From the IMG/VR virus record IMGVR_UViG_3300031911_000001, positions 37,881 through 101,880 of that record: DNA of 64,000 bases; one strand, 5' to 3'. Position numbers and translations under genes: made by a program. This stretch comes from a virus. Its lineage: Duplodnaviria > Heunggongvirae > Uroviricota > Caudoviricetes. Numbering within the stretch: position 1 is the first letter of the stretch; each line of letters starts with the position of its first letter. The notes under the pieces are model-generated. The model did not search any database. It had not been told where the DNA came from and worked only from the letters and a program-made list of their open reading frames with translations. This document shows, in pieces, positions 9,259-64,000 of this stretch.

Positions 9259-9273
9259 TTATCAAAGAATTGT

Positions 9274-12118: not shown

Positions 12119-12249
12119 GAAGGCGGAGGCTTCAATGCCTCCCATTAGGCCAGGATGTTTGTAAGGCGTTATTGTGGGTGCCTCCCACTAGCTGTCGGTG
12201 GAAAGGGACACGGCAACCCGGTTCCCCTGATTAAGCATCCTGGCCTAAT

Positions 12250-12342
12250 GGGCATCTTAGCCGAGCTGGCCTAGCGGCAACGGTCTTGAAAACCGAAGGC
12301 TCCGAAAGGGGTGTGTGAGTTCGAGTCTCACGGTGCCCGCCA
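12250..12342 (+). tRNA. tRNA-Ser (TGA), type II
   Basis: Acceptor gggcatc/ggtgccc+G+CCA, anticodon stem cggt/accg with loop ctTGAaa, long variable arm, T-arm gtgag-ttcgagt-ctcac. 93 nt. Confidence 0.8.
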
Positions 12343-12529
12343 AATTTGTGTGAGATTGAAATGTGAAGGAAAACGGTTAAGTCTGCAGGCGCTTGCCGTT
12401 AGTAGGTCACAAAGTAGTTGCTCAGGCTACCTGCACTTTTGATGTTGTCGCGAGTACGCCAACGGGTCAATGCAAACAGTACCGAACTCAAAAGATGCCG
12501 CCGGCGTCGGAACCGGCCACAAACCACAT

Positions 12530-12609
12530 CTCTCGTTAACTCAGTGGAATAAAAGAGTACTGCGCTACGAACGCAGGAGTCGGAGGTTCGAATCCTTCAC
12601 GAGGGACCA
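12530..12609 (+). tRNA. tRNA-Arg (ACG)
   Basis: Acceptor ctctcgt/acgaggg+A+CCA, anticodon stem ctgcg/cgcag with loop ctACGaa, T-arm ggagg-ttcgaat-ccttc. Confidence 0.75.
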
Positions 12610-12675
12610 TTATTTCTGCCTTGGGTTCGAATCCCACGGCGCGAGGGCTGAAGTGGACAGCAGGCAGAAATAATG

Positions 12676-12751
12676 GCCTAGATAGCTCAGACGGTAGAGC
12701 GGCAGCTTGAAAAGCTGTGCGTCACTGGTTCGATCCCAGTTCCGGGCACCA
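12676..12751 (+). tRNA. tRNA-Phe (GAA)
   Basis: Acceptor gcctaga/tccgggc+A+CCA, D-arm tagctcagacggtagagc, anticodon loop ttGAAaa, T-arm actgg-ttcgatc-ccagt. Confidence 0.8.
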
Positions 12752-12939
12752 AGATTGTTCATTGACGACTGGGTAATGTCGTGGATGTTCATGTGAAAGT
12801 CGTGTCCAGGAGGCTCTTGAGAAGATGGCACCGCCCTCCAGCAATGGAGTCCACCGGGAGTGGATGTAAAGAGATTAGAGTCGTGCGGTTGGTGGTTCGC
12901 CATCAACTGTCAAGGATCGGTGGTGACATCGGTCCACCC

Positions 12940-13015
12940 GGGCTCGTAGCTCAGCCGGGAGAGCAACTGCTTTGCAAGCAGAAGGTTGCAGGTTCGATTC
13001 CTGTCGGGTCCACCA
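12940..13015 (+). tRNA. tRNA-Ala (TGC)
   Basis: Acceptor gggctcg/cgggtcc+A+CCA, D-arm tagctcagccgggagagc, anticodon loop ttTGCaa, T-arm gcagg-ttcgattc-ctgt. Confidence 0.75.
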
Positions 13016-13537
13016 GTTTTGTTGATCGTCATGGGCAAGTCGTGACACGTGGGGAACGTAGACCATACACCGATGATCAACGCATTTTATTCGCCGAAGC
13101 TGTAGGTTCAGAGCCGTGATGCAGTACTCCACTCTAATGAGGGAGCGTTTGTGAGGTCAATACTCACCGGCAAATGGTTTGGAGAGTAGTTAGGATGTCG
13201 GGGTGAAATCCCATCATTTAAAGAGTCGTATGGCATTACCCTGATCCCCCACTGCAAGGATCGGAATGTTGTGCCCGGGGAAAGAACAAGCACAGTTCAT
13301 GTGGTTATCGACTATTCGTGCTCTAGAGCTCAGGGCATGAGGTTGAACGTTCAAGGGCGAAGCCTTGGACTAAATCGGCGGGTGTAATGACGGAAAGACC
13401 CAAAGAGATGCCACGTTGAGACCCGTAGATCGTTTGGCTGTCGAAAGCACACTACCTACTCCCAATTCAACATTAGACCCGCCCACGTTATGGGTAGAAG
13501 ATCGGTCGTTTATTAGGGCCTACATGGATCGTCCTCC

Positions 13538-13609
13538 GGACCGCATGCACCGGAGTAAGGCCTCTTTCGAGAGGCCGATGGGTGGGTTCGATTCCCATCA
13601 GGTCCACCA
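13538..13609 (+). other. tRNA-like element with canonical T-arm and CCA end (gtggg-ttcgatt-cccat, caggtcc-A-CCA) but 6-nt anticodon-like loop and degenerate D-arm
   Basis: ggcctc-tttcga-gaggcc hairpin. Acceptor pairing 5/7. Confidence 0.3.
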
Positions 13610-13617
13610 GTTTCAAT

Positions 13618-13693
13618 GCGTGCTTAGCTCAGTTGGTAGAGCAGTTGAGTGCCACTCAACAGGTCGCAGGTTCGAACCCTGTAGCCCGCACCA
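13618..13693 (+). tRNA. tRNA-Gly (GCC)
   Basis: Acceptor gcgtgct/agcccgc+A+CCA, D-arm tagctcagttggtagagc, anticodon stem gttga/tcaac with loop gtGCCac, T-arm gcagg-ttcgaac-cctgt. Confidence 0.8.
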
Positions 13694-13743
13694 GTTTCAA
13701 TGATTGATGACTCAATGCAGTGTATAATGACTGCTTTTGGGAC

Positions 13744-13998
13744 ATGAACATGAAACCTATTCGCCTCATCTTCAACATCTACCGGACGCTTCGGAAGAAG
13801 CCAATCGTCCAGTCGGTTGAAATCTACATGAAGTCCGGCAACGTGATTGTCATCGACAATGTGATCGGAGATATCACTTACACGTATCAGGGCAACCAGA
13901 TCACCTATCTGAAGGTCAAGCAGGCCCCGGGACACAATGTAGCGATTGAATCCATCGACTTGAGCCAGATCGAGGGCTTCAAGAGCAAAGCATACTAG
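13744..13998 (+). CDS. small hypothetical protein (84 aa)
   Basis: ORF track 13720..13998 begins at GTG. ATG at 13744 follows a TATAAT box at 13723-13728. Confidence 0.45.
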   Translation: MNMKPIRLIFNIYRTLRKKPIVQSVEIYMKSGNVIVIDNVIGDITYTYQGNQITYLKVKQAPGHNVAIESIDLSQIEGFKSKAY

Positions 13999-14008
13999 AA
14001 AGAGCATT

Positions 14009-14344
14009 ATGATCGACGACAACTTCCGCAAAGCATTCCTGACCGGCACCGATGACACCGGGCGTCACATCGTGACTTCGGCTCGCACAGGTCGTACCTA
14101 CTTCGTAGAGGCGATCATCACCGAGAAGACCCCTTCGTGGGGTTCGGTGGACCCGGCAACCGGGAACCTGATGCACAAGAAGGGCGACGGGAAACATCTG
14201 GGTGGCGTGAAGCCGGCTCAGTCCATGATCACTCTCGAGAACGGTTTCGATAAGGTCCATGAACTGGGCCACGGAACGTCACCGTATGCGAAGATCGAAG
14301 AACTCGACGCTCAGTACCCCGACAAGGAAGCTGTAGCGGCGTAA
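14009..14344 (+). CDS. hypothetical protein (111 aa)
   Basis: ORF in tRNA island with plausible RBS. Confidence 0.5.
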   Translation: MIDDNFRKAFLTGTDDTGRHIVTSARTGRTYFVEAIITEKTPSWGSVDPATGNLMHKKGDGKHLGGVKPAQSMITLENGFDKVHELGHGTSPYAKIEELDAQYPDKEAVAA

Positions 14345-14439
14345 GGAATTGAAGTATCGTCGGGGTTGTTCCGGCTTCCGCTTCGATGGGCAGTTTTCAT
14401 CCGGTTCTGCGCCTTGTAAAAACCGGCTCCTATTCTGTG

Positions 14440-14516
14440 TGGACCGTCGCCAAGCTGGTTAAGGCCGGGGATTGTGATTCCCCTATGCGTGGGTTCGAAT
14501 CCCATCGGTCCAACCA
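14440..14516 (+). tRNA. tRNA-His (GTG)
   Basis: Acceptor tggaccg/cggtcca (perfect)+A+CCA, preceded by G(-1). Anticodon stem gggga/tcccc with loop ttGTGat. T-arm gtggg-ttcgaat-cccat (close to E. coli tRNA-His). Confidence 0.8.
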
Positions 14517-14526
14517 CACAATTTCG

Positions 14527-14604
14527 GGGTCGCTAGCTCAATCGGTTTAGAGCACCGGGCTTTTAACCCGGGGGTTCTGAGTTCGAGTCTCAGGCGGCCC
14601 ACCA
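14527..14604 (+). tRNA. tRNA-Lys (TTT)
   Basis: Acceptor gggtcgc/gcggccc+A+CCA, anticodon stem ccggg/cccgg with loop ctTTTaa, T-arm ctgag-ttcgagt-ctcag. Confidence 0.8.
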
Positions 14605-14612
14605 AGGTTTTC

Positions 14613-14690
14613 GGATTGCTAACTCAACTGGTTTAGAGTACCCGCCTCTTAAGCGGGAGGTTCTGTGTTCGACTCACAGGCAATCCACCA
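14613..14690 (+). tRNA. tRNA-Lys (CTT)
   Basis: Acceptor ggattgc/gcaatcc (perfect)+A+CCA, anticodon stem cccgc/gcggg with loop ctCTTaa, T-arm gtgtg-ttcgact-cacag. Confidence 0.8.
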
Positions 14691-14702
14691 CTACAGGAGA
14701 AG

Positions 14703-14861
14703 ATGATGAGCAGAACAGTCAAAGGCGGTAAGGGACCGGGATTTGAATACTGGGGCAAGCGTCCCTTCTCGGGTGTCAGTCCCAGCAAAGAGAACAAGCA
14801 GATCACCCACAAGATCGAACGCCAGCGCAACAAGAAGCTGGACAAAGCCGAGAAAGACTAA
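14703..14861 (+). CDS. small basic protein (52 aa)
   Basis: MMSRTVKGGKGPGFEYWGKRPFSGVSPSKENKQITHKIERQRNKKLDKAEKD. Strong RBS caggagaag. Confidence 0.5.
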   Translation: MMSRTVKGGKGPGFEYWGKRPFSGVSPSKENKQITHKIERQRNKKLDKAEKD

Positions 14862-14959
14862 GTAGATACGTTACGCAGGTATTGCTCGACTGAGGGTGAA
14901 AACCCCTCCCGGGACTGCGCCCGCTATAACCGGAGATGAGTACCGGTTTACAACATTTT

Positions 14960-15035
14960 GGGACGTTAGCTCAGCTGGTAGAGCAGCGGATTGTCTATCC
15001 GCATGTCAGGGGTTCGAATCCCCTACGTCCCGCCA
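14960..15035 (+). tRNA. tRNA-Asp (GTC)
   Basis: Acceptor gggacgt/acgtccc (perfect)+G+CCA, anticodon stem gcgga/tccgc with loop ttGTCta, T-arm cagggg-ttcgaat-cccct. Confidence 0.85.
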
Positions 15036-15089
15036 GTTTTTATTGACCACATGGGGCTAGAGTTTTGAAAGCCGAAGTGTCGTCAATAC

Positions 15090-15164
15090 AGCCGATTAGC
15101 TCAGAGGCAGAGCGGCTCCCTTACAAGGAGAAGGTCGACGTTTCAAAATCGTCATTGGCTACCA
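15090..15164 (+). tRNA. tRNA-Val (TAC), unusual T-loop
   Basis: Acceptor agccgat/attggct+A+CCA, D-arm tagctcagaggcagagc, anticodon loop ctTACaa, T-arm gacg-tttcaaaat-cgtc (non-canonical). Confidence 0.65.
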
Positions 15165-15170
15165 TACAGA

Positions 15171-15237
15171 GGTGCTGTAGCTCAGTTGGTTAGAGCGCAG
15201 GATTCATAACCCTGAGGCCGGTGGATCATTCCCACCT
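15171..15237 (+). tRNA. tRNA-Met/Ile2 (CAT), elongator-type, unusual T-loop
   Basis: Acceptor ggtgctg/tagcacc+A+CCA, D-arm tagctcagttggttagagc, anticodon loop ttCATaa, T-arm ggtgg-atcattc-ccacc. Confidence 0.65.
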
Positions 15238-15251
15238 AGCACCACCAGAAC

Positions 15252-15277
15252 AAGACCCTTCGGGGTCTTTTCTTTTG
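15252..15277 (+). terminator. rho-independent terminator closing the tRNA array
   Basis: aagaccc-ttcg-gggtctt followed by ttcttttg. Confidence 0.7.
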
Positions 15278-15297
15278 CCCTTTCTTTCATCGAAGTG

Positions 15298-15356
15298 TTG
15301 ACGGTCGTCATGAACCTCCCTACAATAGGACATCAACAACCACTTGGAGAAGTGAA
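15298..15356 (+). promoter_or_regulatory. conserved early promoter + leader, copy 1 (TTGACG-N17-TACAAT, leader CATCAACAACCACTTGGAGAAGTGAAATG)
   Basis: Seen in sequence. Shares the core CCACTTGGAGAAGTGAAATG with 8 other sites. Confidence 0.7.
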
Positions 15357-15563
15357 ATGCGCAAATTCAAAATGACTATCCTCTGTTCTGTCCAGGTCGA
15401 GGTTCTTGCAGAACTGACCGAAGACGGCACCTTCGTCAGACATGTGGTTGGCGTCAAACATCCGACTGCCGAAGAGGTCATGGCGGCACTAGAAACCCAT
15501 CCCGGTGTCGGTGGCTTAGAAGAGCTCGACTCCCACTACGCCAACGCAAAGGATTTCCAATGA
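15357..15563 (+). CDS. small early protein (68 aa)
   Basis: ATG directly follows the conserved leader. Confidence 0.65.
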   Translation: MRKFKMTILCSVQVEVLAELTEDGTFVRHVVGVKHPTAEEVMAALETHPGVGGLEELDSHYANAKDFQ

Positions 15564-15760
15564 AAACCATGTACTTGGTCCTTGACGGCCTGACCCCGGA
15601 AGACTTCATCCTTCAGCACGTCATACAGACATACGAATTGGATGAGGATCAGGCCAAGGCCATCATCCAAGGACTGAAGGACAACGGGAGTTACCAAGAC
15701 CTTTACAATAGGGCGGTCGAGGTAATCGACGGATTTAAAAAGATGATGGAGGTAAAGTGA
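15560..15760 (+). CDS. small early protein (66 aa)
   Basis: ATGA overlap with previous gene. Confidence 0.6.
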   Translation: MKTMYLVLDGLTPEDFILQHVIQTYELDEDQAKAIIQGLKDNGSYQDLYNRAVEVIDGFKKMMEVK

Positions 15761-15969
15761 TGAGCAAGACCAAACTTCGCCGAGGAATCGGCCACATGGG
15801 CCGTGTCTTCCAATACGGCACCGCAGTCGGCCCGAATGGTGCATCTCTTAGCATCCGGGCTTCTGTAAAGATGCAGGAGGATAACGCCCGAAAGCTGAAC
15901 AAGCTGCCAGAGTTCAAACGTGCTGCAAAGAAGCGCCAACGTCGTGATGACTTCCGGATGGCATCATGA
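15757..15969 (+). CDS. small basic early protein (70 aa)
   Basis: GTGATG overlap with previous gene. Lys/Arg-rich C-terminus. Confidence 0.6.
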   Translation: MMSKTKLRRGIGHMGRVFQYGTAVGPNGASLSIRASVKMQEDNARKLNKLPEFKRAAKKRQRRDDFRMAS

Positions 15970-16442
15970 ACTCCTGTGAAGAACTAGTCCGTGGCATGGA
16001 AGCCGTGGCTGGACCGGGTAATGTGCCCATCTCGTATCGCATCATGGCCCAGTACGGCCGTGAGTACAAGATCAAGACCAACCACCTGACCGGCAAAGGC
16101 CGCAAGCAGGAATGCTACCGGAACTCCGAGAACCTCGTGACGTTCCAGAGCCTCGATGACCGATACGTCTACGTCGAAGGCTACGCCATGAAGCCGGGGT
16201 TGATTCCCTTGTCCCATGCGTGGGTCGTAGACCTGAACGATGGCAAGGCAATCGATCCTACGTGGCCTGAGGGCGATGGCATCTACTTCGGGGTGCCATT
16301 CGACAACGAGTTCGTCAACGACTTCTCGATCAGTGTCGGCTGCTACGGAATCTTCGAGAACCTCTACAAGTTGCACCGTGCTCGCAACATCAAGCGGCTC
16401 GAAGACGTCATCAAATACCTCGAGTCAGGTATCGTCAAGTAA
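15966..16442 (+). CDS. hypothetical protein (158 aa)
   Basis: ATGA overlap with previous gene. Confidence 0.65.
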   Translation: MNSCEELVRGMEAVAGPGNVPISYRIMAQYGREYKIKTNHLTGKGRKQECYRNSENLVTFQSLDDRYVYVEGYAMKPGLIPLSHAWVVDLNDGKAIDPTWPEGDGIYFGVPFDNEFVNDFSISVGCYGIFENLYKLHRARNIKRLEDVIKYLESGIVK

Positions 16443-16489
16443 GTAAACCACGGGTCATTGAAGGCCCGTCATTTACCATACAGGTTCAA

Positions 16490-16579
16490 GGGCGGTTGGC
16501 AGAGAGGCCGATTGCAGGGGGTTGCTAACCCCTAGGCTCCGCAAGGGGTCCACAGGTTCAAATCCTGTACCGCCCGCCA
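16490..16579 (+). tRNA. tRNA-Ser (GCT), type II
   Basis: Acceptor gggcggt/accgccc (perfect)+G+CCA, anticodon stem ggggg/cccct with loop ttGCTaa, long variable arm, T-arm cacagg-ttcaaat-cctgt. 90 nt. Lies outside the main array. Confidence 0.8.
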
Positions 16580-16595
16580 ACTCTACGGAACCTGT

Positions 16596-17018
16596 ATGTC
16601 AGCACTCTACAATCACATCCGAGCCGAATGGGTCGCTGCCCGACAAGGCAGAATCGAGCTCAAGGCGACTGCTCTCGGCACCATCATTTCTGATCTGGAC
16701 CGCATTGCCAAGGACGAGCAACGTGAGGTCCGAGACTCAGACGTCTTCAATCTGGCACTGAAGTACATCAAGGGCATCAACGAGACCTTGGATGCTCTGC
16801 TGAAGAACGCACCGTCGGACGTGCGCATCCCCCGAATTCAGTTCGAGAAGACGATCTACCAAGAGCTCCTGCCGTCTCAATTGACGCCAGACGAGATCAA
16901 GAAGATCATCCAGCAAAACCACCTGACCGGTGTCAAGGACATCATGACGTACTTCAAGCACCACTACGTTGGCCGGTACGATGGAAAGGTACTCTCAGAA
17001 ATCGCCAGGACAGCATGA
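16596..17018 (+). CDS. hypothetical protein (140 aa)
   Basis: ORF. Confidence 0.6.
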   Translation: MSALYNHIRAEWVAARQGRIELKATALGTIISDLDRIAKDEQREVRDSDVFNLALKYIKGINETLDALLKNAPSDVRIPRIQFEKTIYQELLPSQLTPDEIKKIIQQNHLTGVKDIMTYFKHHYVGRYDGKVLSEIARTA

Positions 17019-17326
17019 AATCAGCCATTATCTACACGCAGGCCGGAGACCGTACCTACCGGTTCATCTGGTACGAAGACCTGCTTAAACGGGCGCAAAT
17101 CGGCTTCCGTGTAGTAGAGCTCCCACGTCTCGAGAACCAGTGTCAGGGGTGCATCCTGAAGTGGGACTTCTCGGTCAGAGGCAACCACATGGATGACTAC
17201 GGTAATCGCATGGGTTGCACCGCTGACCAGTACCGAGACTTGACATACGTCATTGGATGGGATCACAGCTGCGGAACAACTGAAATCAGATCAGAGAAGC
17301 AACTCAAAGAATGGATCGAATCATGA
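17015..17326 (+). CDS. hypothetical protein (103 aa)
   Basis: ATGA overlap with previous gene. Confidence 0.6.
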   Translation: MKSAIIYTQAGDRTYRFIWYEDLLKRAQIGFRVVELPRLENQCQGCILKWDFSVRGNHMDDYGNRMGCTADQYRDLTYVIGWDHSCGTTEIRSEKQLKEWIES

Positions 17327-17793
17327 AGCAAATCTACGTCGCAGGCTTCGCCTTCAATGGTGATCGTGTCCTGCTCATCGAGAAGACGAAGCCTGAATGG
17401 CAGGCAGGGAAGCTCAACGGTATTGGTGGCAAGGTCGAGAAGTACGACCACGACGAATACGCCGCCCAATGCCGTGAGTTCTGGGAAGAGACTGGCATCA
17501 GCACCAATGCCCTCAATTGGACCAAGTTCGACGTCGAACGATTCGATCATGCCGAAGTCCATTGGTTCTTCAACCCGGTTGTCAACATTGACTCATTCAT
17601 CAAGACTACCGAGGAGCAACCGGTGATTGTTCGAGTCAGTGACGTCATCGGTGAAGGATTCAATCCATACGACGATGGCAAGATGTGTCTCTATAACTTG
17701 CCCTATCTGCTACTAAAAGCATGGACTTTCGTCTTCAATGGTGGTCCTCACCATCAGATTCCCAATCTTAAGGCCTCATACTACACTGCGTAG
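17311..17793 (+). CDS. Nudix hydrolase (T4 NudE-like)
   Basis: Nudix box GGKVEKYDHDEYAAQCREFWEETGI. Confidence 0.75.
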   Translation: MDRIMKQIYVAGFAFNGDRVLLIEKTKPEWQAGKLNGIGGKVEKYDHDEYAAQCREFWEETGISTNALNWTKFDVERFDHAEVHWFFNPVVNIDSFIKTTEEQPVIVRVSDVIGEGFNPYDDGKMCLYNLPYLLLKAWTFVFNGGPHHQIPNLKASYYTA

Positions 17794-17829
17794 CAATTGT
17801 AAAGTGTAAGTAAGCAGGGAGATACCAAT

Positions 17830-18465
17830 ATGAAACTAATCAACAAACTGGTGTTCGCTGCTATTATGCTTGTCACTTGCACTGCCGTGACTACACAGCA
17901 ACTGCAGCAGACCGAGAAGATCATTGAGACGGAGCAGTCTACGATTGCTGTCGTTCGTGACAAGATTGACAAGTCCATCACCGGTGACAAGCTGGTGTTC
18001 GGCAGTGTGGTTCACCTGAAGAAGCAGGTCGGCGTAGACAACATCCGGATCATCCAGCGCAAGGGTGCGTACAACTGTGCCCGGGGTGAGTTCATCATCA
18101 AGGAAGTTACCGCCTTTGACAAGTCCGGTAACGAGGTCAAGGATGAAAACATCAAGACCGATGTGATCATGACGCCGAACATCGACACCGTCAAGCGAGA
18201 GTTCAAGTTCATGTGTGCCGATCCTACACCGGCTCCTGTAGTAGAACCACCTGCACCGCCGCCTCAGATCATCACGGTTCCGATCCCTGTGATCATTGAA
18301 GCCGTCGAGGAAGCACCGAAGAAGGCCCGTCCGAAGCCAGCAGTGAAGAAGCCTGAACCGGCACCGAAGCCAATCGCCAAAGCCCCTGAGGCACCCAAGG
18401 TCAAGGCTCCTGTTGTTCAAAAACAACCACTCAACGCCGGACAACGTACTGATCTGGTAGACTAA
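17830..18465 (+). CDS. secreted/membrane protein with Pro/Ala/Lys-rich repetitive C-terminus
   Basis: N-terminal hydrophobic segment. C-terminal PTPAPVVEPPAPPP...KKPEPAPKPIAKAPEAPKVKAP low-complexity repeats. Confidence 0.6.
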   Translation: MKLINKLVFAAIMLVTCTAVTTQQLQQTEKIIETEQSTIAVVRDKIDKSITGDKLVFGSVVHLKKQVGVDNIRIIQRKGAYNCARGEFIIKEVTAFDKSGNEVKDENIKTDVIMTPNIDTVKREFKFMCADPTPAPVVEPPAPPPQIITVPIPVIIEAVEEAPKKARPKPAVKKPEPAPKPIAKAPEAPKVKAPVVQKQPLNAGQRTDLVD

Positions 18466-18472
18466 TGCACAT

Positions 18473-18553
18473 GGGGGAGTGACGGGAATCCTTGGTATAC
18501 CTCGGGGCCTCAAAAGCTCTGGTCTGTGGGTTCAAGTCCCACCTCCCCTACCA
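18473..18553 (+). tRNA. tRNA with Leu anticodon CAA, Leu-like D-arm, discriminator A, but short (5-nt) variable arm (second class-I-like tRNA-Leu)
   Basis: Acceptor gggggag/ctcccct+A+CCA, anticodon stem ggggc/gctct with loop ctCAAaa, variable ggtct, T-arm gtggg-ttcaagt-cccac. Confidence 0.5.
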
Positions 18554-35147: not shown

Positions 35148-36104
35148 ATGGCAGGCTTTAAAACCCGAACAATCAAGGCCATCCTCCGGGGGAAGGTCAA
35201 CGCATGGCTCAATACGATTGACAACGAGGAAGTTGTCAAGGCACTCCGCAAGGACGTACTGATCACCGGGGGCAGCATCGCCTCCATGCTCATCGGCGAG
35301 AGCGTCAAGGACTTTGACATCTATCTCCGCACCAAGGAGACGGCAAAGCTCGTTGCCAACTACTACCTCAAGATTTTCAGTGACGAGTACTCAAAGGCTC
35401 ATGCCGGTGAGCAATTGCATGCCGTCGTCGCCGAGGTCTACCGGATGAATCTGAAGGGTGAGGGCGAGATGGTCGTCACCATCAAGAACGAAGGCCGCAA
35501 CCGCAATGCCGTACAGATGCGGGGCGTCGCCGACACCACACAGAGTCCGGATGACATGGCCGAGGAAATGGTCGAAGAGCTCAACGATGAGGCACTCCAA
35601 GACTCCTTCGAGAAGCGCACCTCCAAGCGCTATCACCCGGTGTTCATCAGTGACAATGCGATCACCCTGTCGAACAAGATTCAGATCGTCATGCGGTTCG
35701 TCGGTGAGCCCGAGGTCATCCACGAGAACTACGACTTCGCTCACTGTAAGAACTACTACGACTTTGCCAAGGATGATCTGGTCCTCAATCAACTGGCACT
35801 CGAATGCCTGATGAGCAAGACCCTGCGCTACACCGGCTCCCTGTATCCGCTGTGCTCTGTCTTCCGTGCCAAGAAGTTCATCGAACGTGGTTGGCGCATC
35901 TCGGCTGGTGAGCTGCTCAAAATCTGCTATCAGGTCTCGAAGATCGACTTCGGCGACATGGAAATGTTGCGTGAACAACTGGTCGGCGTCGATGCCCTCT
36001 ACTTCTTCAACCTGATGTCGAAGATCAAGGACCACGTCGATTCCGGCAAGACCCTTGACAACGACTCGCTCGTCAACCTGATCGATGAGGTGTTCAACGC
36101 ATGA
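35148..36104 (+). CDS. hypothetical protein (318 aa), possible nucleotidyltransferase fold
   Basis: ITGGSIASMLIGESVKDFDIY resembles the GS...DxD pol-beta-type motif (weak). Confidence 0.5.
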   Translation: MAGFKTRTIKAILRGKVNAWLNTIDNEEVVKALRKDVLITGGSIASMLIGESVKDFDIYLRTKETAKLVANYYLKIFSDEYSKAHAGEQLHAVVAEVYRMNLKGEGEMVVTIKNEGRNRNAVQMRGVADTTQSPDDMAEEMVEELNDEALQDSFEKRTSKRYHPVFISDNAITLSNKIQIVMRFVGEPEVIHENYDFAHCKNYYDFAKDDLVLNQLALECLMSKTLRYTGSLYPLCSVFRAKKFIERGWRISAGELLKICYQVSKIDFGDMEMLREQLVGVDALYFFNLMSKIKDHVDSGKTLDNDSLVNLIDEVFNA

Positions 36105-50643: not shown

Positions 50644-50885
50644 TTGTTCTCCGGAAATTGCATGATGTTGGGATCGAACATCAGGTAAGGAAAGCTGGCA
50701 AGAATGCTGCCGCAATCCCAATCGTGATCAACGAAACCACCATCAAGAGCAATAGTGCCACGGGCTCGTTGTCGTTCTGTTCCATCCTTGTACTCCTTGA
50801 AATAGAGTTCCTTAATCAGGAAGACTGATGTTGGGCGAGACCTTTTGTCTTTCCATATTTGTCCGGTCTTGAATTCTGGGGTCAA
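50640..50885 (-). CDS. hypothetical protein (81 aa)
   Basis: ORF. Overlaps neighbours. Confidence 0.4.
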   Translation of the reverse strand: MTPEFKTGQIWKDKRSRPTSVFLIKELYFKEYKDGTERQRARGTIALDGGFVDHDWDCGSILASFPYLMFDPNIMQFPENK

Positions 50886-51507
50886 CGTAGCCTCTGAATG
50901 TAAGCGAGATTCTCGGTCCGCAGTTGTGCTTGCTGGACTTCGGAATTCGGTGTTGGTGGGTGTCCTGCATCCCCGGTTGCATCAGACACAGACTCCCGTG
51001 ACCAAGGGTCAGCTTGGTCACCTCCACTGACTGCCTGGCAAGCTCTTCGTGTTGCTTTTCATCAAAGAACTCGGCTTGCTTGGCAATGAGCTCGACGTAC
51101 TCTTTTCGAGACCTGAACCAGATTTCACGCTCTTCGCCAAGCGTGACGATAGCGATGGGCCGGTCATCGTCCATTTCGGGGCTGTCATCGGAGTGCCAGC
51201 CGAGTTGGTCTTTTCCGTCCACGTAGCCGTTGAGGAAACATACTTCGAACCGCTCATTGGTGATCTCCTCAAGCAATACCCTGATGCCACGGATGATGAG
51301 AGTCATCGGCTGAGGCCAATACACATGAGCATCTGGCCCCTTGTCGTATACATAGGGTGCCTTGACGTCGTTGCAGTAGTACTCACGACGAGGCTTCCCG
51401 GTCTTCACCCAGTCGAGTTTGTCCCAAAGCTCTTTGAAAGCAATGTCGGCATCCTCCTGGCCAAGCCAGTTAGGGATGTAGTTGATCGGTGGGTAGAATG
51501 GGTTCAT
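50812..51507 (-). CDS. alkB: AlkB-family Fe(II)/2-oxoglutarate dioxygenase (alkylation repair)
   Basis: HSDD...IAIVTLGEEREIWF...HRIP...RISLTFR motifs. Confidence 0.7.
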   Translation of the reverse strand: MNPFYPPINYIPNWLGQEDADIAFKELWDKLDWVKTGKPRREYYCNDVKAPYVYDKGPDAHVYWPQPMTLIIRGIRVLLEEITNERFEVCFLNGYVDGKDQLGWHSDDSPEMDDDRPIAIVTLGEEREIWFRSRKEYVELIAKQAEFFDEKQHEELARQSVEVTKLTLGHGSLCLMQPGMQDTHQHRIPKSSKHNCGPRISLTFRGYVDPRIQDRTNMERQKVSPNISLPD

Positions 51508-57118: not shown

Positions 57119-58672
57119 TTAAATGAAGTTTGTTACGGTATTCGGTTTGACGATCTTTTCACCCTCGATCTTCAGCGTGTATTCCTTTACGGGGTGCTGC
57201 TCTGCATCGTAATAGCCCTTGCGGACCTCAGCATGTTGCAGCGTCGTATTTTCTTTCCCACGGGTCGAGAAGTCGTCGAAGATGTCATAGATATTGGCTA
57301 CGTCCTTACTCTTGTGCAGACGGAGCATACGGCCAATCGATTGGAGCACCCGGATGATCGACTTCACCGGGTGACAGAACACCAGATTGTGGAGGTGCTT
57401 GATCGACACGCCTGTAGACATGGTGCCGTACGAACCGAGAATAATGATGTCTCCCTCGGCCTCTGTGATCTTTTGGATGGTCACACGGTCGTCACCGCTT
57501 ACGTCGCCATTGATGACGAACACCTTCTTGTCACCCAGCCCCTCTTCCAGCATCTGGGCCAGGATCATCAATTGGTGCTTGTCTTTACGGTCGAACAGGA
57601 ATAGTGAATTCCCTTTCAGCGTCTTGGCGAGAGTCTTGATCACCCGGTTTCTTGCAGGGTGACCAATGATGTATTCCAGCTCCTGTTGGTAGGTCATCTT
57701 GTAGACGGCCTCACGTTGGTCGGACGGATATTCCAGTCGCATGCGAATGACCTGCGTCTTGGCAGCACGACCGGCATCTTGCAACTGTTTGGTTGTCACC
57801 ACACGTTGGACAGGACCGAAATTGCCCTGCACCATCAGTGGGTGCAGCTCGTTGTTCTGCAGCGTACCGGTGAGGCCGACCTTTTGGTATGCATTGATAG
57901 AACATTCGCAGATCATCTTGATGCACTTCGCCTTGGCAAGGTGGCACTCGTCGACAAGGATTTGTCCAAACTGTTCGTAGTAATCAGGCTCCATATCTTG
58001 GATAGACTGCCACGTAGCAATGTAGACGGACCTCTTGGATACCTTTACCGCACCTTCTGAAATAACGTGGCAATTTGCGTGTACGTCCCATCCGTTCTTC
58101 TGGCTGTATGCCTTGAAGTCGTTGAACATCTGGTGGGTCAGGTGGATCGACGGCACGAGCAATAGCGTCTTGTGAACAGATTCACCGGCCTGACGGAGCA
58201 TGTCGTAATAGCGAATCAGGATGTATTGGATCAATGACTTACCGGCAGACGTGGCGGCCAGCAGGGTCATGCGGTTGTATTTGATGGCGAGATAGACGGC
58301 CTCAAGCTGATAGTCGTAGGGGATCAGTGGGTCACCGTGTTCATCGGTGCATTCCAGCGTGTCGATCCACTTCGCCAATTCCTCTTTGGTGATCTTGGTG
58401 ATGTCGTTCTTGAAACGCTTGTCCATCTCAAATGTGTATCCACGCATTTTGCAGAACTGGAGGACGATCTGGAGCAGGCCATACGGGAGCTTGCCCGTAG
58501 CCTTGTTGAACATGCGCACTTCACCGTCCCAAGTAGATTTGGAATAACGGTTCTTCTGAAAGGTCGGTTCCTTGAATCTGAAGAACTGATACAGGTCTTC
58601 CGAAACTCCAAGGTCGTCGGTCAGGAGGCGAATGTAGCTCGCGTTGAATCTGTCAATGTAAATGTCCGCCAT
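57119..58672 (-). CDS. uvsW: UvsW-like SF2 DNA/RNA helicase
   Basis: Walker A ATSAGKS. DEAH box ILVDECH. 517 aa (T4 UvsW 503 aa). Confidence 0.8.
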   Translation of the reverse strand: MADIYIDRFNASYIRLLTDDLGVSEDLYQFFRFKEPTFQKNRYSKSTWDGEVRMFNKATGKLPYGLLQIVLQFCKMRGYTFEMDKRFKNDITKITKEELAKWIDTLECTDEHGDPLIPYDYQLEAVYLAIKYNRMTLLAATSAGKSLIQYILIRYYDMLRQAGESVHKTLLLVPSIHLTHQMFNDFKAYSQKNGWDVHANCHVISEGAVKVSKRSVYIATWQSIQDMEPDYYEQFGQILVDECHLAKAKCIKMICECSINAYQKVGLTGTLQNNELHPLMVQGNFGPVQRVVTTKQLQDAGRAAKTQVIRMRLEYPSDQREAVYKMTYQQELEYIIGHPARNRVIKTLAKTLKGNSLFLFDRKDKHQLMILAQMLEEGLGDKKVFVINGDVSGDDRVTIQKITEAEGDIIILGSYGTMSTGVSIKHLHNLVFCHPVKSIIRVLQSIGRMLRLHKSKDVANIYDIFDDFSTRGKENTTLQHAEVRKGYYDAEQHPVKEYTLKIEGEKIVKPNTVTNFI

Positions 58673-58711
58673 GTCGTACTTCCTTCGAGGTACTTACCTG
58701 CGGACATTACA

Positions 58712-59398
58712 TCAATTCTTCTTGTGTTTCCTGACCAAGTCCAGGACCTTTGGCATCCACTTTGCCCGGTCCTGAATGAAGACTGAGGCCTTTTGCTCAC
58801 CGTCCGTGCCAATGACGACGACCAATTGCTCTGCCTTGATGCCGGTGCGCTCCTGCAACATCATTGAGTAAATACAGGTTTGAAGGAAATATCCTTCAAT
58901 GTACTCAAGACGCTTGAGCTTTCTGGAGGACTTCCAATCGATGATCGAGAGCTTCCCCTTCCACTCTGCCAAGAGGTCGGCAGTCCCAGCAAGATTCATG
59001 TAGTTGGAGTAGAGGGCGAACTCCTGACCATGGATCTTCCCAAGGCACATATCGGCCACCCGCTTCAGCTGAGGAAAGAGTGAAATCTTCTTGTTCCTCT
59101 CCTGCCACCCCGGGGAGTCTGTCAGGTAGTCCTCCATCGACTTGTGGAGGGCACTGCCTCTGATGCTGGCTTCGTTCTTGATCCTCTCGGCCTCTTCATG
59201 ACCGACCTCGTCGTACCAGCGCTCCAGAGCAGCCTTGTCACCGACCTGACCGAGGAATGTCGTGACCGACGTCATAATGACCCCGTCAGGGCTGACATAG
59301 TGCCTGCCGTTGACGGGGTGATTGACCTGTACGGGTTCTACGAGGTCTTTGAGGCTATCGGTCCATTCAAATGAACGTTGTTGAGGTTTGAGTATCAC
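58712..59398 (-). CDS. PD-(D/E)XK nuclease (YqaJ/lambda-exonuclease-like)
   Basis: GTADLLAEWKGKLSIIDWKSS catalytic D...E-x-K pattern. Confidence 0.55.
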   Translation of the reverse strand: MILKPQQRSFEWTDSLKDLVEPVQVNHPVNGRHYVSPDGVIMTSVTTFLGQVGDKAALERWYDEVGHEEAERIKNEASIRGSALHKSMEDYLTDSPGWQERNKKISLFPQLKRVADMCLGKIHGQEFALYSNYMNLAGTADLLAEWKGKLSIIDWKSSRKLKRLEYIEGYFLQTCIYSMMLQERTGIKAEQLVVVIGTDGEQKASVFIQDRAKWMPKVLDLVRKHKKN

Positions 59399-59405
59399 CT
59401 ACGAT

Positions 59406-59744
59406 TTAGGTTGCAGCCCGGACCTGAAGATCGCGAGCGGCACGCCATTCATCGAGGACCGCATCGGCTTCACCCAAAACCTTTGTCCGATCTTCCGATT
59501 GGGTGCTCACCGCGTTGTGCAGGTTCTGGAACTGGACCCGCAGATCGAAAGGAGCATCGGCAATGTTGAACTTCTGGTCCTTCGAGAAGATGGTCTCGGC
59601 AGTCCGTAGGGCTCGTGGCACGGTGCAACGTCCTTGGAGGGCATCGATCAGCCGACGATATGCCGGTATGAACTGACGCAGCATCCACTCTTGGTAGGCC
59701 GGGTCATCACGTTGACCAAAGATTTTCTTGATAAGGCGAATCAT
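59406..59744 (-). CDS. hypothetical protein (112 aa)
   Basis: ORF. Confidence 0.5.
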   Translation of the reverse strand: MIRLIKKIFGQRDDPAYQEWMLRQFIPAYRRLIDALQGRCTVPRALRTAETIFSKDQKFNIADAPFDLRVQFQNLHNAVSTQSEDRTKVLGEADAVLDEWRAARDLQVRAAT

Positions 59745-60193
59745 GGTTGTTCCTTCTTGCTTTTGAGCAATTTCACTGCTAATTCTACATGGCCATATTG
59801 GCTCAACGTGTTGACCATAACATTGATTTCATGATGTGTCAACAAGGCATCGATCTTGAAGGCCACGAGCTTTGGCTCAAGAGATCGGTTGTACTCTACC
59901 AGATGGGTGCCGTATTGACTCGGGCCGACGTATTCGATTTTGAGCTTGTGCTTTTTGGCCAGATCGATGATCGACTTGGTGAAGTTGTACGAGCCATTGT
60001 GAGTCTTCAAGTCAAGTGGGAACTTGGCGTTGAACCACGAGTCCTCCAGATCATGACCAAAGGATGTCAAGACGAATCGTTCGCCTTGATTCAGCCGTTC
60101 GATATGGCGGTTGTATTGGGTGACAATGTCATCGATGCCTTCGATGAATTTGTATTTCTCTGGTGCCACCATAAAGCCTTTGGGATCACGCAT
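59741..60193 (-). CDS. hypothetical protein (150 aa)
   Basis: ORF. Confidence 0.5.
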   Translation of the reverse strand: MRDPKGFMVAPEKYKFIEGIDDIVTQYNRHIERLNQGERFVLTSFGHDLEDSWFNAKFPLDLKTHNGSYNFTKSIIDLAKKHKLKIEYVGPSQYGTHLVEYNRSLEPKLVAFKIDALLTHHEINVMVNTLSQYGHVELAVKLLKSKKEQP

Positions 60194-60194
60194 A

Positions 60195-60599
60195 TCATCT
60201 TCTCCTTAACAGACCGTTCCTCAAATCCTCGAGGTCCTGGTCGGTGGCTAGTTGTAGTCCACCCTTGTTGTAGAGTGGTATCGCACGCGATGAAAGTATC
60301 CGTTTCGCCTCGGAAAGATCGGGGTCGAAGGGAATCGTGCCTCCTTTGCCCATCGGAACTGATCTTCCGACTCTGGCGACTTCTCGCCGGGACGGAAGGG
60401 TCGGTGATGGTCCCACCATCCCTGAAAGCTCAGCCTTGACAGGGGGTTGACGATGATTCTTGTTCCTGGACGAAAACTTCGGTAGCGACGCATATTTGTT
60501 TTGCAGTTCATCCCATGACTTCTGGAGTTCACGGGCTTTTTGCACCTTGTTCAATTTGGTTGGCCTCAAGAAAGATTTTGCGATACTTGGAAATGGCAC
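60195..60599 (-). CDS. hypothetical basic protein (134 aa)
   Basis: ORF. Confidence 0.5.
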   Translation of the reverse strand: MPFPSIAKSFLRPTKLNKVQKARELQKSWDELQNKYASLPKFSSRNKNHRQPPVKAELSGMVGPSPTLPSRREVARVGRSVPMGKGGTIPFDPDLSEAKRILSSRAIPLYNKGGLQLATDQDLEDLRNGLLRRR

Positions 60600-60717
60600 C
60601 GATCATGTTCTTGTGGGGAGGCGGAGGAGCATCCCGGTCGGCACCCTTGAGAGGGTCTTCGGTCCTCAGCTTCTCTTCGAAGCGAGCCCACATTTCCGCT
60701 GGGGTCGGCATCACCAT
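60529..60717 (-). CDS. questionable small ORF (62 aa)
   Basis: Overlaps the downstream gene by 70 nt. Confidence 0.25.
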   Translation of the reverse strand: MVMPTPAEMWARFEEKLRTEDPLKGADRDAPPPPHKNMIGAISKYRKIFLEANQIEQGAKSP

Positions 60718-60838
60718 TCACCCATGTAGATCATTGCGAAACCACATGCCAGAACGGGAACCCAGAAGGGTGCGGTAGCAAAGAACAGGGTCATTTGTTT
60801 CTCCAAACAGTTTCGATGTCCAAGTATAACCGAGAAAC

Positions 60839-61378
60839 TCAAACCTGCAAGGATGTCGTCGCAATCAATTCATCGCTGTAGACTCGCTTGACCAGCTTGT
60901 ACTTTGGTAAGAGAATGATCTCTCTGAAAATCTGCTCAGAATACCAGCGGCAGATGATCTTCGTGTCGAGGTCGACATGATAGAAGTTGCAACCCTGTTG
61001 GACGTACTTCAGCATGTGGTCCATGAGCCTGTACTCACGGAGGTAGAAGACGTCACGGACGCCTGCGTTGAACAGGTCATCCATGCAGTCCGGGCAGGGG
61101 CTGTCGGTGACGAACAGGACAGCTTCCTTAGCGGTCTCACGACTGCCCCAGAGCTTGTTTAAGGCATTAATCTCGGCATGACGTACACCGGGCTTCGTGT
61201 TGCCGTTTTCGTCCTCACAGCAGTTGCATTCCCCCGGGCGGGTGCCGTTGTAGCCGATGGCGATCGGGGTTCCACCCTTCACCAGCAGAGCACCGACCTT
61301 GCGGCGAACACAGCTGCTCAGTTGAGCATAGACCTTGGCTGCCTCAAGGTGTGCAAAGACAAATTTTCTTTTGATCAT
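60839..61378 (-). CDS. dCMP deaminase (T4 cd-like)
   Basis: HAEINAL...SPCPDC zinc-binding deaminase motifs. Confidence 0.8.
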   Translation of the reverse strand: MIKRKFVFAHLEAAKVYAQLSSCVRRKVGALLVKGGTPIAIGYNGTRPGECNCCEDENGNTKPGVRHAEINALNKLWGSRETAKEAVLFVTDSPCPDCMDDLFNAGVRDVFYLREYRLMDHMLKYVQQGCNFYHVDLDTKIICRWYSEQIFREIILLPKYKLVKRVYSDELIATTSLQV

Positions 61379-61593
61379 TGTGCTCTTCGTTATTCAGTGG
61401 AGGCGGCCGTTTGACCTCCGGGTTAGCATATTCCGGCTCTTATCAAGGAGGTGGGGCCAGACATCGAAACTTCCTCCCACAGTCTGGCGGAATGCCCGTT
61501 GGCATTCCTCGTCACCCTACGCATATGCAAGACGTCATGAATTGTGGGCAGTACCCGCACCCTAGCCTTTCGGCTGAGATTCGTTGTTGGGCA

Positions 61594-61881
61594 TCAAGCC
61601 TTGACGTCCAGAGGACTCACGGTCGTCGGTGCGCGCTTGGATTTGATTTGACGGGTATCACCATCACGAATCCATTGCTGGATCATCGGGCTCACACCGC
61701 CATAACCGGCATTGCGAGCGTCATGGAGGACACGACGACGGACCTGATGCAGGTTCAGGTCTACACCCTCGGCCTTTGCCAGATTCACAAGGAACTGGGC
61801 CAGGACGGTGGTGTTGTTGTTGCGGACGATACCGTCCTTCTTCACATTGGCGATCTTAGTCATTTTGACTTTACCTTTCAT
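61594..61881 (-). CDS. hypothetical protein (95 aa)
   Basis: ORF. Confidence 0.5.
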   Translation of the reverse strand: MKGKVKMTKIANVKKDGIVRNNNTTVLAQFLVNLAKAEGVDLNLHQVRRRVLHDARNAGYGGVSPMIQQWIRDGDTRQIKSKRAPTTVSPLDVKA

Positions 61882-62078
61882 TAAACACGGGTTGCGTTGC
61901 GGAGGTTCTCGTAGACGTCAGATGCTCGGTAGCGCTCTGGACCAACATCGCATTCGGCGAAGTAGGCATGGGCTGCCTGCTCTGCGGCTCGAATCTTGGT
62001 GTCACGATCCTGCTTGAGAATCTTGATCTTTTCAGTCTGGCTCAACGGTTCAGACGATGTTACTACGGCCATTTTCAA
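61881..62078 (-). CDS. hypothetical protein (65 aa)
   Basis: ORF, overlapping start/stop. Confidence 0.45.
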   Translation of the reverse strand: MKMAVVTSSEPLSQTEKIKILKQDRDTKIRAAEQAAHAYFAECDVGPERYRASDVYENLRNATRV

Positions 62079-62083
62079 TTCCT

Positions 62084-62482
62084 TCAGACGAGTTTGCCAC
62101 CATGCTTGTGGGAGCGGGTTGAGTTGTACTTCAGCTTTGCCACGACGGCTTCTGCCAGACGGAGGTCTTCCTTCTCGGCGTAGTCCATGCTTCGGATCAC
62201 GACGTCGGCCAGTTCTTCCTCTTCACAGGTGAATTCAGGAATCTTCTCTGATGGCTTCATCGGCTTGCGACAGGCCTCGGTCATCTCTGCGACTTCCGAG
62301 ACGATGAGCATCTGCTTGCTCAGCTTCTTGTCGACGCTCGACGGTCCACGATCTTGGCTTTCATGCCAGCCCTTGGAGGTGTTGACATTGAATACCTCCA
62401 GTTGCTTGCGCTTGAAGCCAAAGATAAAGGAGGCGTCAATCTCTCGTTGGACTGACGGCGGCATGATGTTTTCGATGCTCAC
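62084..62482 (-). CDS. MazG-like nucleotide pyrophosphohydrolase
   Basis: EVAEMTEA...EEELADVVI (EExxE/D motifs). Confidence 0.6.
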   Translation of the reverse strand: MSIENIMPPSVQREIDASFIFGFKRKQLEVFNVNTSKGWHESQDRGPSSVDKKLSKQMLIVSEVAEMTEACRKPMKPSEKIPEFTCEEEELADVVIRSMDYAEKEDLRLAEAVVAKLKYNSTRSHKHGGKLV

Positions 62483-63273
62483 TTGAAATCTCCGGTGAAA
62501 ATGGTCATGTTGGCGTAGGCGTCAATGAGGTCGCACATCATGCGTTCCTCAAAGTCTGGGTTCGGAATGGTCTTGTAGCCTCGCATCAGGTCCATGCTGT
62601 ACTCGTTGAGTGGGCTCAGTGGGCTCACCCCGACGTAGTCTTCGTAGATGTCGAAGTTGCGCAGGATCAGGGCTCGCTTGACGCACTGGAGGCACTTGCC
62701 ACAGGGTTGGCCGTGATTGTGCCAGCAACTGGTCGTCGCCTTGAGTTCTTCACGAGTGACGAGGTTGTTGTCGAGGCAGTACCGCACGGCGTCAAACTTG
62801 GTCCAACCCAGACGGGAGAAGGGGAAGACGACTTCGACGTTGTCAACGAATGGGCTCAAGACGTAGTTGAGGGTGTCACTCATCTTCGACCGGAACATCT
62901 CGTTCTTGTCGGTCGCACGATCATTGTCCTCATCGAAGAGAACACCGAGCCAGATTTCGTTCGGCAGGTAATAGCTGGCGGCCATGGCAGCAAACACCAT
63001 GTTGCGACCGGGGATGTAGATCGGGCCTGCAAGGGGCATCGACTTCTTGGCAACCGGTTTGATCTCGTCACCGAGCCAATCGATCTTCTTGATCTTGATG
63101 TCGGCGGGCAGCCCGCTCATCTCTTGCTCAAGGGCTTCTTGACCATGATCGATGAACATGGTGATGACCTCGGCCTGCGGGTATGCGTGTTTCGCAAACC
63201 GCTGCATGAGCAGGGAGTCAAGTCCCCCGCTGTACAGGATAACGATTCGGTTCGTTGGGTTTGGTGTGTTCAT
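62479..63273 (-). CDS. queC: 7-cyano-7-deazaguanine synthase QueC
   Basis: PP-loop ILYSGGLDS. C-terminal CGKCLQC zinc motif. 264 aa. Confidence 0.75.
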   Translation of the reverse strand: MNTPNPTNRIVILYSGGLDSLLMQRFAKHAYPQAEVITMFIDHGQEALEQEMSGLPADIKIKKIDWLGDEIKPVAKKSMPLAGPIYIPGRNMVFAAMAASYYLPNEIWLGVLFDEDNDRATDKNEMFRSKMSDTLNYVLSPFVDNVEVVFPFSRLGWTKFDAVRYCLDNNLVTREELKATTSCWHNHGQPCGKCLQCVKRALILRNFDIYEDYVGVSPLSPLNEYSMDLMRGYKTIPNPDFEERMMCDLIDAYANMTIFTGDFK

Positions 63274-63297
63274 GTGTCTATTCTAAGGGGTCAATCT

Positions 63298-64000
63298 TCA
63301 ATCAAAGAACGCAGACAGTGACGTCTCTGGTCCCTTGATGGTGTGCTGTTTGCCGGTCGTTGACAGGAACGTTCCGGCCTTCAACTGTTGGCGCTTGTAG
63401 TGGGTCTTGGCCTTGTGGGCACCATGGACGTCTTCAATCGACGGCTTGCGTCCAAGACCCTCCATGTAAGAACCGTATAGGAAGTCGTCATTCGCAGTGA
63501 ACAGGGTCTTGGTAGGGGTATGAGGGTGATCCTCCGAAAGCAGCTCCAACCATGCTTTCCGTGCGCGCTGGTCGTACTCCTGTCCCTCTTTCAGTTGTCC
63601 GAATCCTTCTACCGGTTGCTCGTGGATGAACTTGGCGTATTTGGCCCGGTTTTCCTTCGTCGTCTTGATGAGAGCGAAGCCCTCGGACTCAAAGTTCTTG
63701 TGCCAGTAGCAATCACCGTCTACGATGACCGGACACTGGGCCATACCCTCAAGGCAAGAGAAGCTGAAGTTCTCGTGACGTGATGGATGGTAGACCAGCT
63801 TGGCCGAGGAAATGAAGTCAACCTTCTCCTGACCGAAGATGCCTGACTTGATCTCGTAGTCCGTGATCCCTGCTTCCTTGAAAGCCTTCTCGAACTTGGC
63901 GACACCACGGGGGCCGGTCATGACCTTTGCGGGGAGGCCAGACTCCTTGATCAGTGCGACGAATTCCTCTGGGCGCTTGCGTGGTTCCCAACGGCCATTG
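63298..64000 (-). CDS. GT1-family glycosyltransferase, C-terminal part (N-terminus beyond window)
   Basis: ENFSFSCLEGMAQCPVIV matches the GT-B C-terminal E-x7-E/nucleotide-sugar motif. Reading frame stays open to the window edge upstream of Met 63921. Confidence 0.5.
   Translation of the reverse strand, partial: NGRWEPRKRPEEFVALIKESGLPAKVMTGPRGVAKFEKAFKEAGITDYEIKSGIFGQEKVDFISSAKLVYHPSRHENFSFSCLEGMAQCPVIVDGDCYWHKNFESEGFALIKTTKENRAKYAKFIHEQPVEGFGQLKEGQEYDQRARKAWLELLSEDHPHTPTKTLFTANDDFLYGSYMEGLGRKPSIEDVHGAHKAKTHYKRQQLKAGTFLSTTGKQHTIKGPETSLSAFFD

Follow-up and report, generated by a model that had tools for sequence, protein, structure and literature searches.

At the end of a 64,000-nucleotide stretch of a tailed-phage (Caudoviricetes) genome, which at its full length is called the window here, a QueC-family gene stands beside a glycosyltransferase (GT) gene, and this raises the question of which base the two might help to build. 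The locus covers positions 60839-64000; its gene calls hold at these coordinates, with every gene on the minus strand. A sequence-only reading had proposed that the phage makes 7-deazaguanine DNA modifications, possibly further glycosylated. As described below, the locus probably marks the downstream end of an island for 7-deazaguanine DNA modification that is split in two and includes an inositol/sugar tailoring module, in a T4-like phage of ~168 kb. The island most likely replaces guanine in phage DNA by a 7-deazaguanine base, and the likeliest end product is not plain preQ0 but a 7-deazaguanine to which inositol and/or a glycosyl group is attached.

The island beyond the window

The source contig is ENA ERZ27248661 k141_721879 (167,881 bp); subtracting 32,288 from a record position gives the window position, and the two sequences agree exactly where they overlap. 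The stretch that was read runs from record position 22,508 to 126,189, which is 62% of the contig. Coordinates past 64000 are window-equivalent, and all island genes lie on one strand, listed here in the 5' to 3' order:

74677-74012, same strand as QueC: QueD-like PTPS protein (Pfam PTPS; locus-derived hidden Markov model (HMM), 78-81 bits)
73967-73299, same strand as QueC: FolE, GTP cyclohydrolase I (Pfam GTP_cyclohydroI; locus-derived HMM, 262 bits)
73302-72037, same strand as QueC: DpdA2-type DNA transglycosylase, 421 amino acids (locus-derived HMM, 337 bits)
66580-65273, same strand as QueC: myo-inositol-phosphate synthase (MIPS), 435 amino acids (Pfam Inos-1-P_synth)
between the MIPS and HAD genes, same strand as QueC: 61-amino-acid open reading frame (ORF)
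65044-64640, same strand as QueC: minimal HAD phosphatase, 134 amino acids
64653-63298 (L002 6726-8081), same strand as QueC: GT4-like glycosyltransferase, full 451 amino acids
63298-64000, minus strand: the part of this glycosyltransferase inside the window, C-terminal 233 codons of 451 amino acids, with the frame open at the window edge
62479-63273, minus strand: QueC-family PP-loop ATPase, 264 amino acids (PF06508, 56.3 bits; PHROG_1550, E=2e-28)

After the GT4-like gene come the QueC-clade ATPase (63273-62479) and then a MazG-like gene. The remaining pathway genes had been expected just outside the window; in fact, the genes directly past its end, upstream of the GT, are the HAD phosphatase, the 61-amino-acid ORF and MIPS, none of them a Que gene. 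The DpdA2-type, FolE and QueD-like genes follow 8-10.7 kb past the window end, and their presence on the same contig and strand bears out the idea of 7-deazaguanine DNA modification. Of the anticipated flanking genes, then, a part was recovered; QueE did not turn up in the 62% of the contig read. A preQ0- or archaeosine-type end product, as had also been suggested, is not indicated; QueF, Gat and ArcS-type genes were not seen in the stretches read.

The 421-amino-acid protein carries the DSGGLQ, FDEIP, HFLGIGS and SYDSTS motifs of tRNA-guanine transglycosylases (TGT) and DpdA, and shares 27% identity (E=4e-40) with KVP40.0122, which is of the DpdA2 type of nt-1 and VH7D. Furthermore, its family profile aligns with canonical phage DpdA (hhalign 96%) and also finds TGT among the PDB entries, so that the source contig encodes the DpdA-family transglycosylase by which phage 7-deazaguanine systems are recognised. 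Its gene is translationally adjacent to FolE, and the PTPS-like protein retains the QueD cysteine (CxxxHGY), not the DpdL LxxxHRH motif. DpdA2 enzymes insert preQ0, preQ1 as well as CDG (7-carboxy-7-deazaguanine) into DNA (PMC10516641, PMC6884629), and phages that encode DpdA2 are reported to have hosts with genes for the full queuosine (Q) pathway (PMC6884629).

Two groups of other genes adjoin these. Directly upstream of the QueD-like gene (L182 4863-8801, record ~107.5-111.4 kb) lie a 984-amino-acid protein with an ADP-ribosyltransferase-toxin domain and a divergently oriented ADP-ribosylglycohydrolase. Between the two parts of the island, 66720-69299 (L002 2080-4659) encodes a GDSL/SGNH hydrolase, a PKD-domain protein and a YAcAr/SLOG protein; read by eye, the N-terminus of the hydrolase resembles a lipoprotein signal peptide (LTAC, then a Gly run).

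The QueC clade and the glycosyltransferase

The QueC-family protein passes the Pfam gathering score (PF06508, 22 bits) and falls far below the NCBIfam equivalog cutoffs (47.9 versus 150.3 and 19.5 versus 378). Its SGGLDS PP-loop (SGGxDS) is invariant across 32 homologs, as are all of the zinc-motif cysteines C183, C191, C194 and C197, with a first spacer of 7 residues versus 8 in C(x)8CxxCxxC, and its profile matches QueC of the PDB entries 2pg3 and 3bl5. Essential residues of E. coli QueC are Y35, R99, Y131 (aromatic) and Y189 (PMC13329287); here R99 is retained (IPGRN), while Y35 is replaced by H, Y131 by A (YPDC to ATDK) and Y189 by W. The protein is only 22% identical to KVP40 ExsB and belongs to a separate clade.

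This clade was delimited among 92 loci analysed with locus-derived HMMs on six-frame translations, which gave 71 distinct viral QueC sequences. MIPS lies near QueC in 26 of the 71 loci. HAD accompanies it in 21 of these 26 and in none of the 45 others; a DpdA2-like gene is found in 17/26 versus 3/45, and the canonical DpdA type shows the opposite trend (2/26 versus 33/45). In a neighbour-joining tree the MIPS-linked QueCs, this one included, form one clade with one exception. The clade has a signature of its own: where E. coli QueC has residue 35 it has H (H43), YPDC is replaced by [AG]TDK, and position 189 is W (W184). Since the MIPS-linked loci have no second QueC, this QueC takes the post-CDG position of the pathway. 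Identities of the triad to that of Stenotrophomonas phage Yut2 are 56% for MIPS, 48% for HAD and 51% for QueC.

MIPS matches M. tuberculosis Ino1 (1gr0) with E=2.7e-91 over residues 3-366, and more weakly the five-membered cyclitol-phosphate synthase 6k96 (E=4e-48); from the strength of these two matches, carbocyclic (Ari2-like) chemistry was judged less likely than true MIPS activity. The HAD phosphatase conserves its DxDGV, ITGRS and EDD motifs. Triad and GT are combined only in the lineage of this phage (L003-5, L092) and in the IMG/VR contigs L023 and L024, with the single-operon order QueE-FolE-DpdA2-GT-MIPS-HAD-QueC in L023. A GIY-YIG/NUMOD3 homing endonuclease gene sits between the MIPS and HAD genes in L003 (7560-8303, minus strand) and L092 (6247-6972, minus strand), and in L092 QueC and GT have changed places. 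A 164-amino-acid phosphoribosyltransferase (PF00156) recurs in viral deazaguanine clusters with and without MIPS (several of L012-L037), which hints at a nucleotide-level step for the deazapurine base.

The glycosyltransferase had been named a GT1 enzyme running off the window. The latter part stands. As to the class, the full protein misses the gathering score of Pfam Glycos_transf_1 (23.3 versus 26.4 bits), although PF00534 is present in several homologs, and its AlphaFold2 model (pLDDT 88.4, pTM 0.89) matches, in Foldseek, the GT4 enzymes sucrose-phosphate synthase, BshA, MshA and PimA with probability 1.00 and TM up to 0.70. By this model the enzyme has a predicted GT-B fold of two Rossmann domains and is GT4-like. 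The EX7E motif (E294/E302) is invariant in 38 homologs, and a GRWE.RK loop is likewise conserved.

The GT family has 468 relatives in IMG/VR, and its gene context was counted in the best 80 of the 468 loci, in which QueE occurs in 73, FolE in 61, QueD in 61 and a DpdA2-like gene in 41, together with a second GT in 50 and an epimerase of nucleoside-diphosphate (NDP) sugars in 66. Since this family is characteristic of deazaguanine clusters in viruses, the suggestion of further glycosylation gains support. Among cultured carriers, Synechococcus phage BUCT-ZZ01 has the order QueE-phosphoribosyltransferase-QueD-FolE-GT-DpdA2, and the Xanthomonas phages X1 and BUDD also carry the GT. A QueC-less cluster with QueE, FolE, the GT4-like GT, a DpdA2-like gene and QueD is widespread (L093-L172 of IMG/VR, L090 and L173, which is BUCT-ZZ01), and also holds a 126-amino-acid protein, a second GT and an NDP-sugar epimerase/dehydratase. 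This QueC-less cluster points to many T4-like phages with a CDG-type base that is glycosylated.

Proposed pathway and rival explanations

A pathway can be proposed in which FolE and QueD, with QueE from the unread part of the genome or from the host, would make CDG, whose carboxylate the QueC-clade enzyme would adenylate with ATP in the manner of QueC. From glucose-6-phosphate, MIPS and the HAD phosphatase would produce myo-inositol(-phosphate), and the GT4-like enzyme would transfer a sugar from an NDP-sugar, so that MIPS, HAD and GT together would tailor the deazaguanine. After replication, the DpdA2-type enzyme would exchange guanine for the finished base, by which the DNA would be protected from host nucleases. 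The MIPS-HAD-QueC clade and the GT4-like enzyme would thus be two add-on modules on a DpdA2-type system, both of which appear to tailor the CDG-derived base. A step further, and rather doubtful, is the proposal that the MIPS-linked QueC clade uses the CDG-adenylate to attach myo-inositol or glycosyl-inositol, not stopping at the ammonia-derived amide or nitrile, and that DpdA2 then inserts a 7-deazaguanine bearing inositol and/or sugar.

Several points weigh against this pathway. It is from gene linkage alone that we infer an inositol or sugar on the base, and QueC and MIPS occur in 0/80 of the best GT loci, so that each add-on may work without the other. Record 22,508-126,189 yielded no QueE-like gene. 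A separate profile search of the contig listed no DpdA2-like protein though one exists, and the negatives of that search are untrustworthy. About 5.5 kb of small and unrelated genes separate the core (QueD-FolE-DpdA2) from the tailoring genes, and the monophyly of the MIPS-linked QueCs could reflect one co-inherited cassette, not coupled function. Y35 and YPDC are likewise absent from many QueCs of ordinary phage clusters; departure from the E. coli signature alone therefore shows no new reaction, and the argument for neofunctionalisation from that catalytic signature was dropped as decisive.

One alternative is that the system is of a plain preQ0 or 7-amido-7-deazaguanine (ADG) type, in which QueC would be an ordinary preQ0 (or ADG) synthase and MIPS, HAD and GT would be hitch-hiking auxiliary metabolic genes for host metabolism or envelope (inositol, glycoconjugates). 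QueC still has its PP-loop, Zn site and IPGRN arginine, phage QueCs of standard clusters deviate from the bacterial signature in a similar way, a secreted GDSL hydrolase and a PKD protein are encoded nearby, and the authors of the Ps15 study regarded MIPS as a bacteria-derived gene (PMC9025141). This alternative is nevertheless considered unlikely: MIPS and HAD stand beside 0/45 of the other viral QueC types, HAD abuts QueC in most loci, the GT lies within deazaguanine operons in 73 of the 80 best loci, often between FolE and DpdA2, and the linkage is kept across unrelated backbones (Menderavirus, this phage, T4-like cyanophage-type contigs). A glycosylated pterin, made by FolE, the PTPS-like protein and the GT4-like enzyme in the manner of the cyanobacterial tetrahydrobiopterin glucosyltransferase, would accord with the failure to find QueE in 62% of the contig; that glucosyltransferase is among the Foldseek matches (ranks 31 and 40), and the single cultured cyanophage carrying the GT infects Synechococcus. 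Such a product is highly improbable, since FolE and the DpdA2-type gene are translationally adjacent, pterin synthesis gives no role to an enzyme of the QueC family, and QueE is present in 73 of the 80 best GT loci.

The target may also be sought outside DNA. QueC-family enzymes are known to deazaguanylate proteins (PMC13329287), and the phage has 26 tRNA genes and anti-defence genes such as a Gad2-like one; the enzyme might therefore join deazaguanine to protein in the Cap9/QatC manner as a phage counter-defence, or the system might modify the phage's own tRNAs. There is very little probability in either. QatC models give only 18 bits (cutoff 280) and, in PADLOC, 17 bits, no qatA, qatB, qatD or CD-NTase neighbours occur at the QueC locus, no Cap10/QatB-like partner was seen, and the transglycosylase linked to it belongs to the DpdA2 type, for which action on DNA has been shown (PMC10516641). 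Separately, UvsW is 46-53% similar to that of RSP15 and PhiW-14, which had suggested a PhiW-14-type thymidine hypermodification; this was rejected in view of the differing synteny, the presence of ThyX and the lack of any 5-hydroxymethyldeoxyuridine (hmdU)-pathway genes among those seen.

The tailored 7-deazaguanine DNA base thus remains the preferred reading. Viral DNA is known to contain eight derivatives of 7-deazaguanine, and to our knowledge none of them bears a cyclitol or sugar. A tailored deazaguanine is undescribed so far and, if true, would be a new class of hypermodified guanine, paralleled by a glycosylated-CDG class in those QueC-less clusters, hundreds in number, in which this GT family also occurs. 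Such undescribed derivatives are pointed to by the 26 distinct MIPS-linked QueC loci and the GT family of 468 relatives. Bulky guanine modifications bear on restriction and CRISPR evasion and on defence systems that sense modified DNA, and can produce sequencing artefacts in phage genomics.

Other genes and comparison with known systems

The rest of the locus consists of the following features:

60839-61378, minus strand: dCMP deaminase, 179 amino acids (PF00383, 55.5 bits, cutoff 25; PHROG_174, E=1e-41)
61379-61593, no strand: intergenic spacer of 215 nt, without credible gene
61594-61881, minus strand: small ORF, 95 amino acids, function unassigned, called on the source contig
61881-62078, minus strand: small ORF, 63-65 amino acids, function unassigned, called on the source contig
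62084-62482, minus strand: MazG-like NTP pyrophosphohydrolase, 132 amino acids (PHROG_5658, E=6e-23; PHROG_3301, E=8e-22; 'pyrophosphatase')

The deaminase shows the zinc motifs HAE (HAEINAL) and PCxxC (PCPDC). Because ThyX is encoded elsewhere on the source contig, it fits ordinary dTMP supply and looks like part of ordinary T4-type nucleotide metabolism or general pyrimidine supply. The 132-amino-acid protein found no match in Pfam, NCBIfam or PDB sequence searches; read by eye, it contains EVAEMTEA and EEELADVV, acidic metal motifs of the EExxE/EELAD type, so that a MazG-like identity is plausible, if weakly supported. The GTG start of its gene overlaps the QueC stop codon (GTGA), and homologs 54-59% identical occur at the same position in L003 and L092 only. 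Deaminase and MazG-like gene are syntenic solely within close relatives of this phage, which is all that ties either to the modification pathway. The grouping into a single module that had been read here is thus only partly right, and a place for these two genes in the pathway is not supported.

For the two small ORFs (61594-61881 and 61881-62078) nothing was found in Pfam, PHROGs, NCBIfam or PADLOC. The 215-nt spacer had been described as ORF-free and highly structured. It is indeed without a credible gene and is not unusually structured: RNA folding z-scores are +0.15 for the sense and -1.09 for the opposite strand, an Rfam search gave no match at E<=1, and a structured RNA or riboswitch was ruled out on these grounds. 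Its conserved part is only ~55 nt near the deaminase start (61396-61450), with an AATAT box and a GGAGG...CCTCC hairpin, and over 55 nt it matches, with 77% identity, the corresponding intergenic site of the relative L003, where it stands upstream of another gene (Acb2/Tad1-like). It is probably a promoter or 5'-untranslated-region element.

Elsewhere in the window, 7555-18553 (plus strand) is a tRNA island of 26 tRNA genes, which also holds, at ~10057-10469, a tmRNA in permuted (two-piece) form (Rfam RF04321, 61.9 bits; tag ANDAQMRIAA) and an odd 'tRNA' with a 2-nt anticodon reported by ARAGORN at 8930-9018. A 318-amino-acid protein at 35148-36104 (plus strand) has a precomputed match to Pfam Gad2, an anti-Gabija family, which suggests a putative anti-defence gene, and an AlkB-like 2-oxoglutarate-Fe(II) oxygenase (PF13532) is encoded at 50812-51507 (minus strand). 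The nucleotide-related genes NADAR, NUDIX and NT5C are also in the window. Beyond it, L183 9546-11553 encodes an AAA_33 kinase (Pfam), a 326-amino-acid KVNG-motif protein and a 191-amino-acid protein, of which the latter two are without Pfam match and, by eye, are RNA-ligase-like and metallophosphatase-like; the three genes look like a tRNA-repair module, and immediately upstream of the kinase group are the genes for ThyX, RegA and the clamp loader.

No match to GenBank phages was obtained by megablast of 58000-64000, and descriptions of the MIPS-HAD-QueC and GT associations were not found in the literature that could be searched; a recent QueC-family survey mentions neither inositol nor glycosyltransferases. 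The row of MIPS, phosphatase and GT4 enzyme resembles the enzyme types of the early steps of mycothiol synthesis (Ino1, MshA, MshA2) and BshA and PimA, with no equivalents of MshB, MshC and MshD here. Since the GT family usually occurs without MIPS, an inositol acceptor is not implied, and a mycothiol-like pseudo-disaccharide pathway is unsupported.

The GT family is found mostly in QueC-less FolE/QueD/QueE/DpdA2 clusters, which recalls the QueC-less DpdL clusters of the phages phiST (Cellulophaga) and ACP17 (Acidovorax) that give dDG (2'-deoxy-7-deazaguanine) or dCDG (2'-deoxy-7-carboxy-7-deazaguanine) (Cui 2023); the DpdA of ACP17 is of the same type as that here. The published clusters of this kind are described without glycosyltransferases, whereas the present island has QueC and the QueD-type cysteine. 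With the DpdA2-type clusters of the Vibrio phages nt-1, VH7D and KVP40 (Hutinet 2019, Cui 2023) it shares FolE, QueD, a QueC-family gene and a DpdA2-like gene on one strand. In KVP40, as here, FolE is directly upstream of DpdA2 and a dCMP deaminase gene (cd) is near the que genes. The present island differs from all three by the additional MIPS, HAD phosphatase and GT4-like GT, and in that QueE was not found in the part of the contig read, nor were QueF, Gat and ArcS seen.

The closest cultured carriers of MIPS-HAD-QueC are the Stenotrophomonas Menderavirus phages Ps15, Moby, Mendera, IME-SM1 and Yut2, in whose 'queuosine' cluster MIPS and HAD flank QueC, with FolE, a DpdA2-like gene and QueE alongside (PMC9025141). 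Their clusters differ in being contiguous, in adjoining DnaB and in lacking the GT4-like and MazG-like genes; the backbones are unrelated to that of this phage except for a baseplate protein, and the searchable literature holds no report of the Menderavirus DNA base. In conclusion, cultured phages exist for each variant, namely Menderavirus for the triad and BUCT-ZZ01, X1 and BUDD for the GT.

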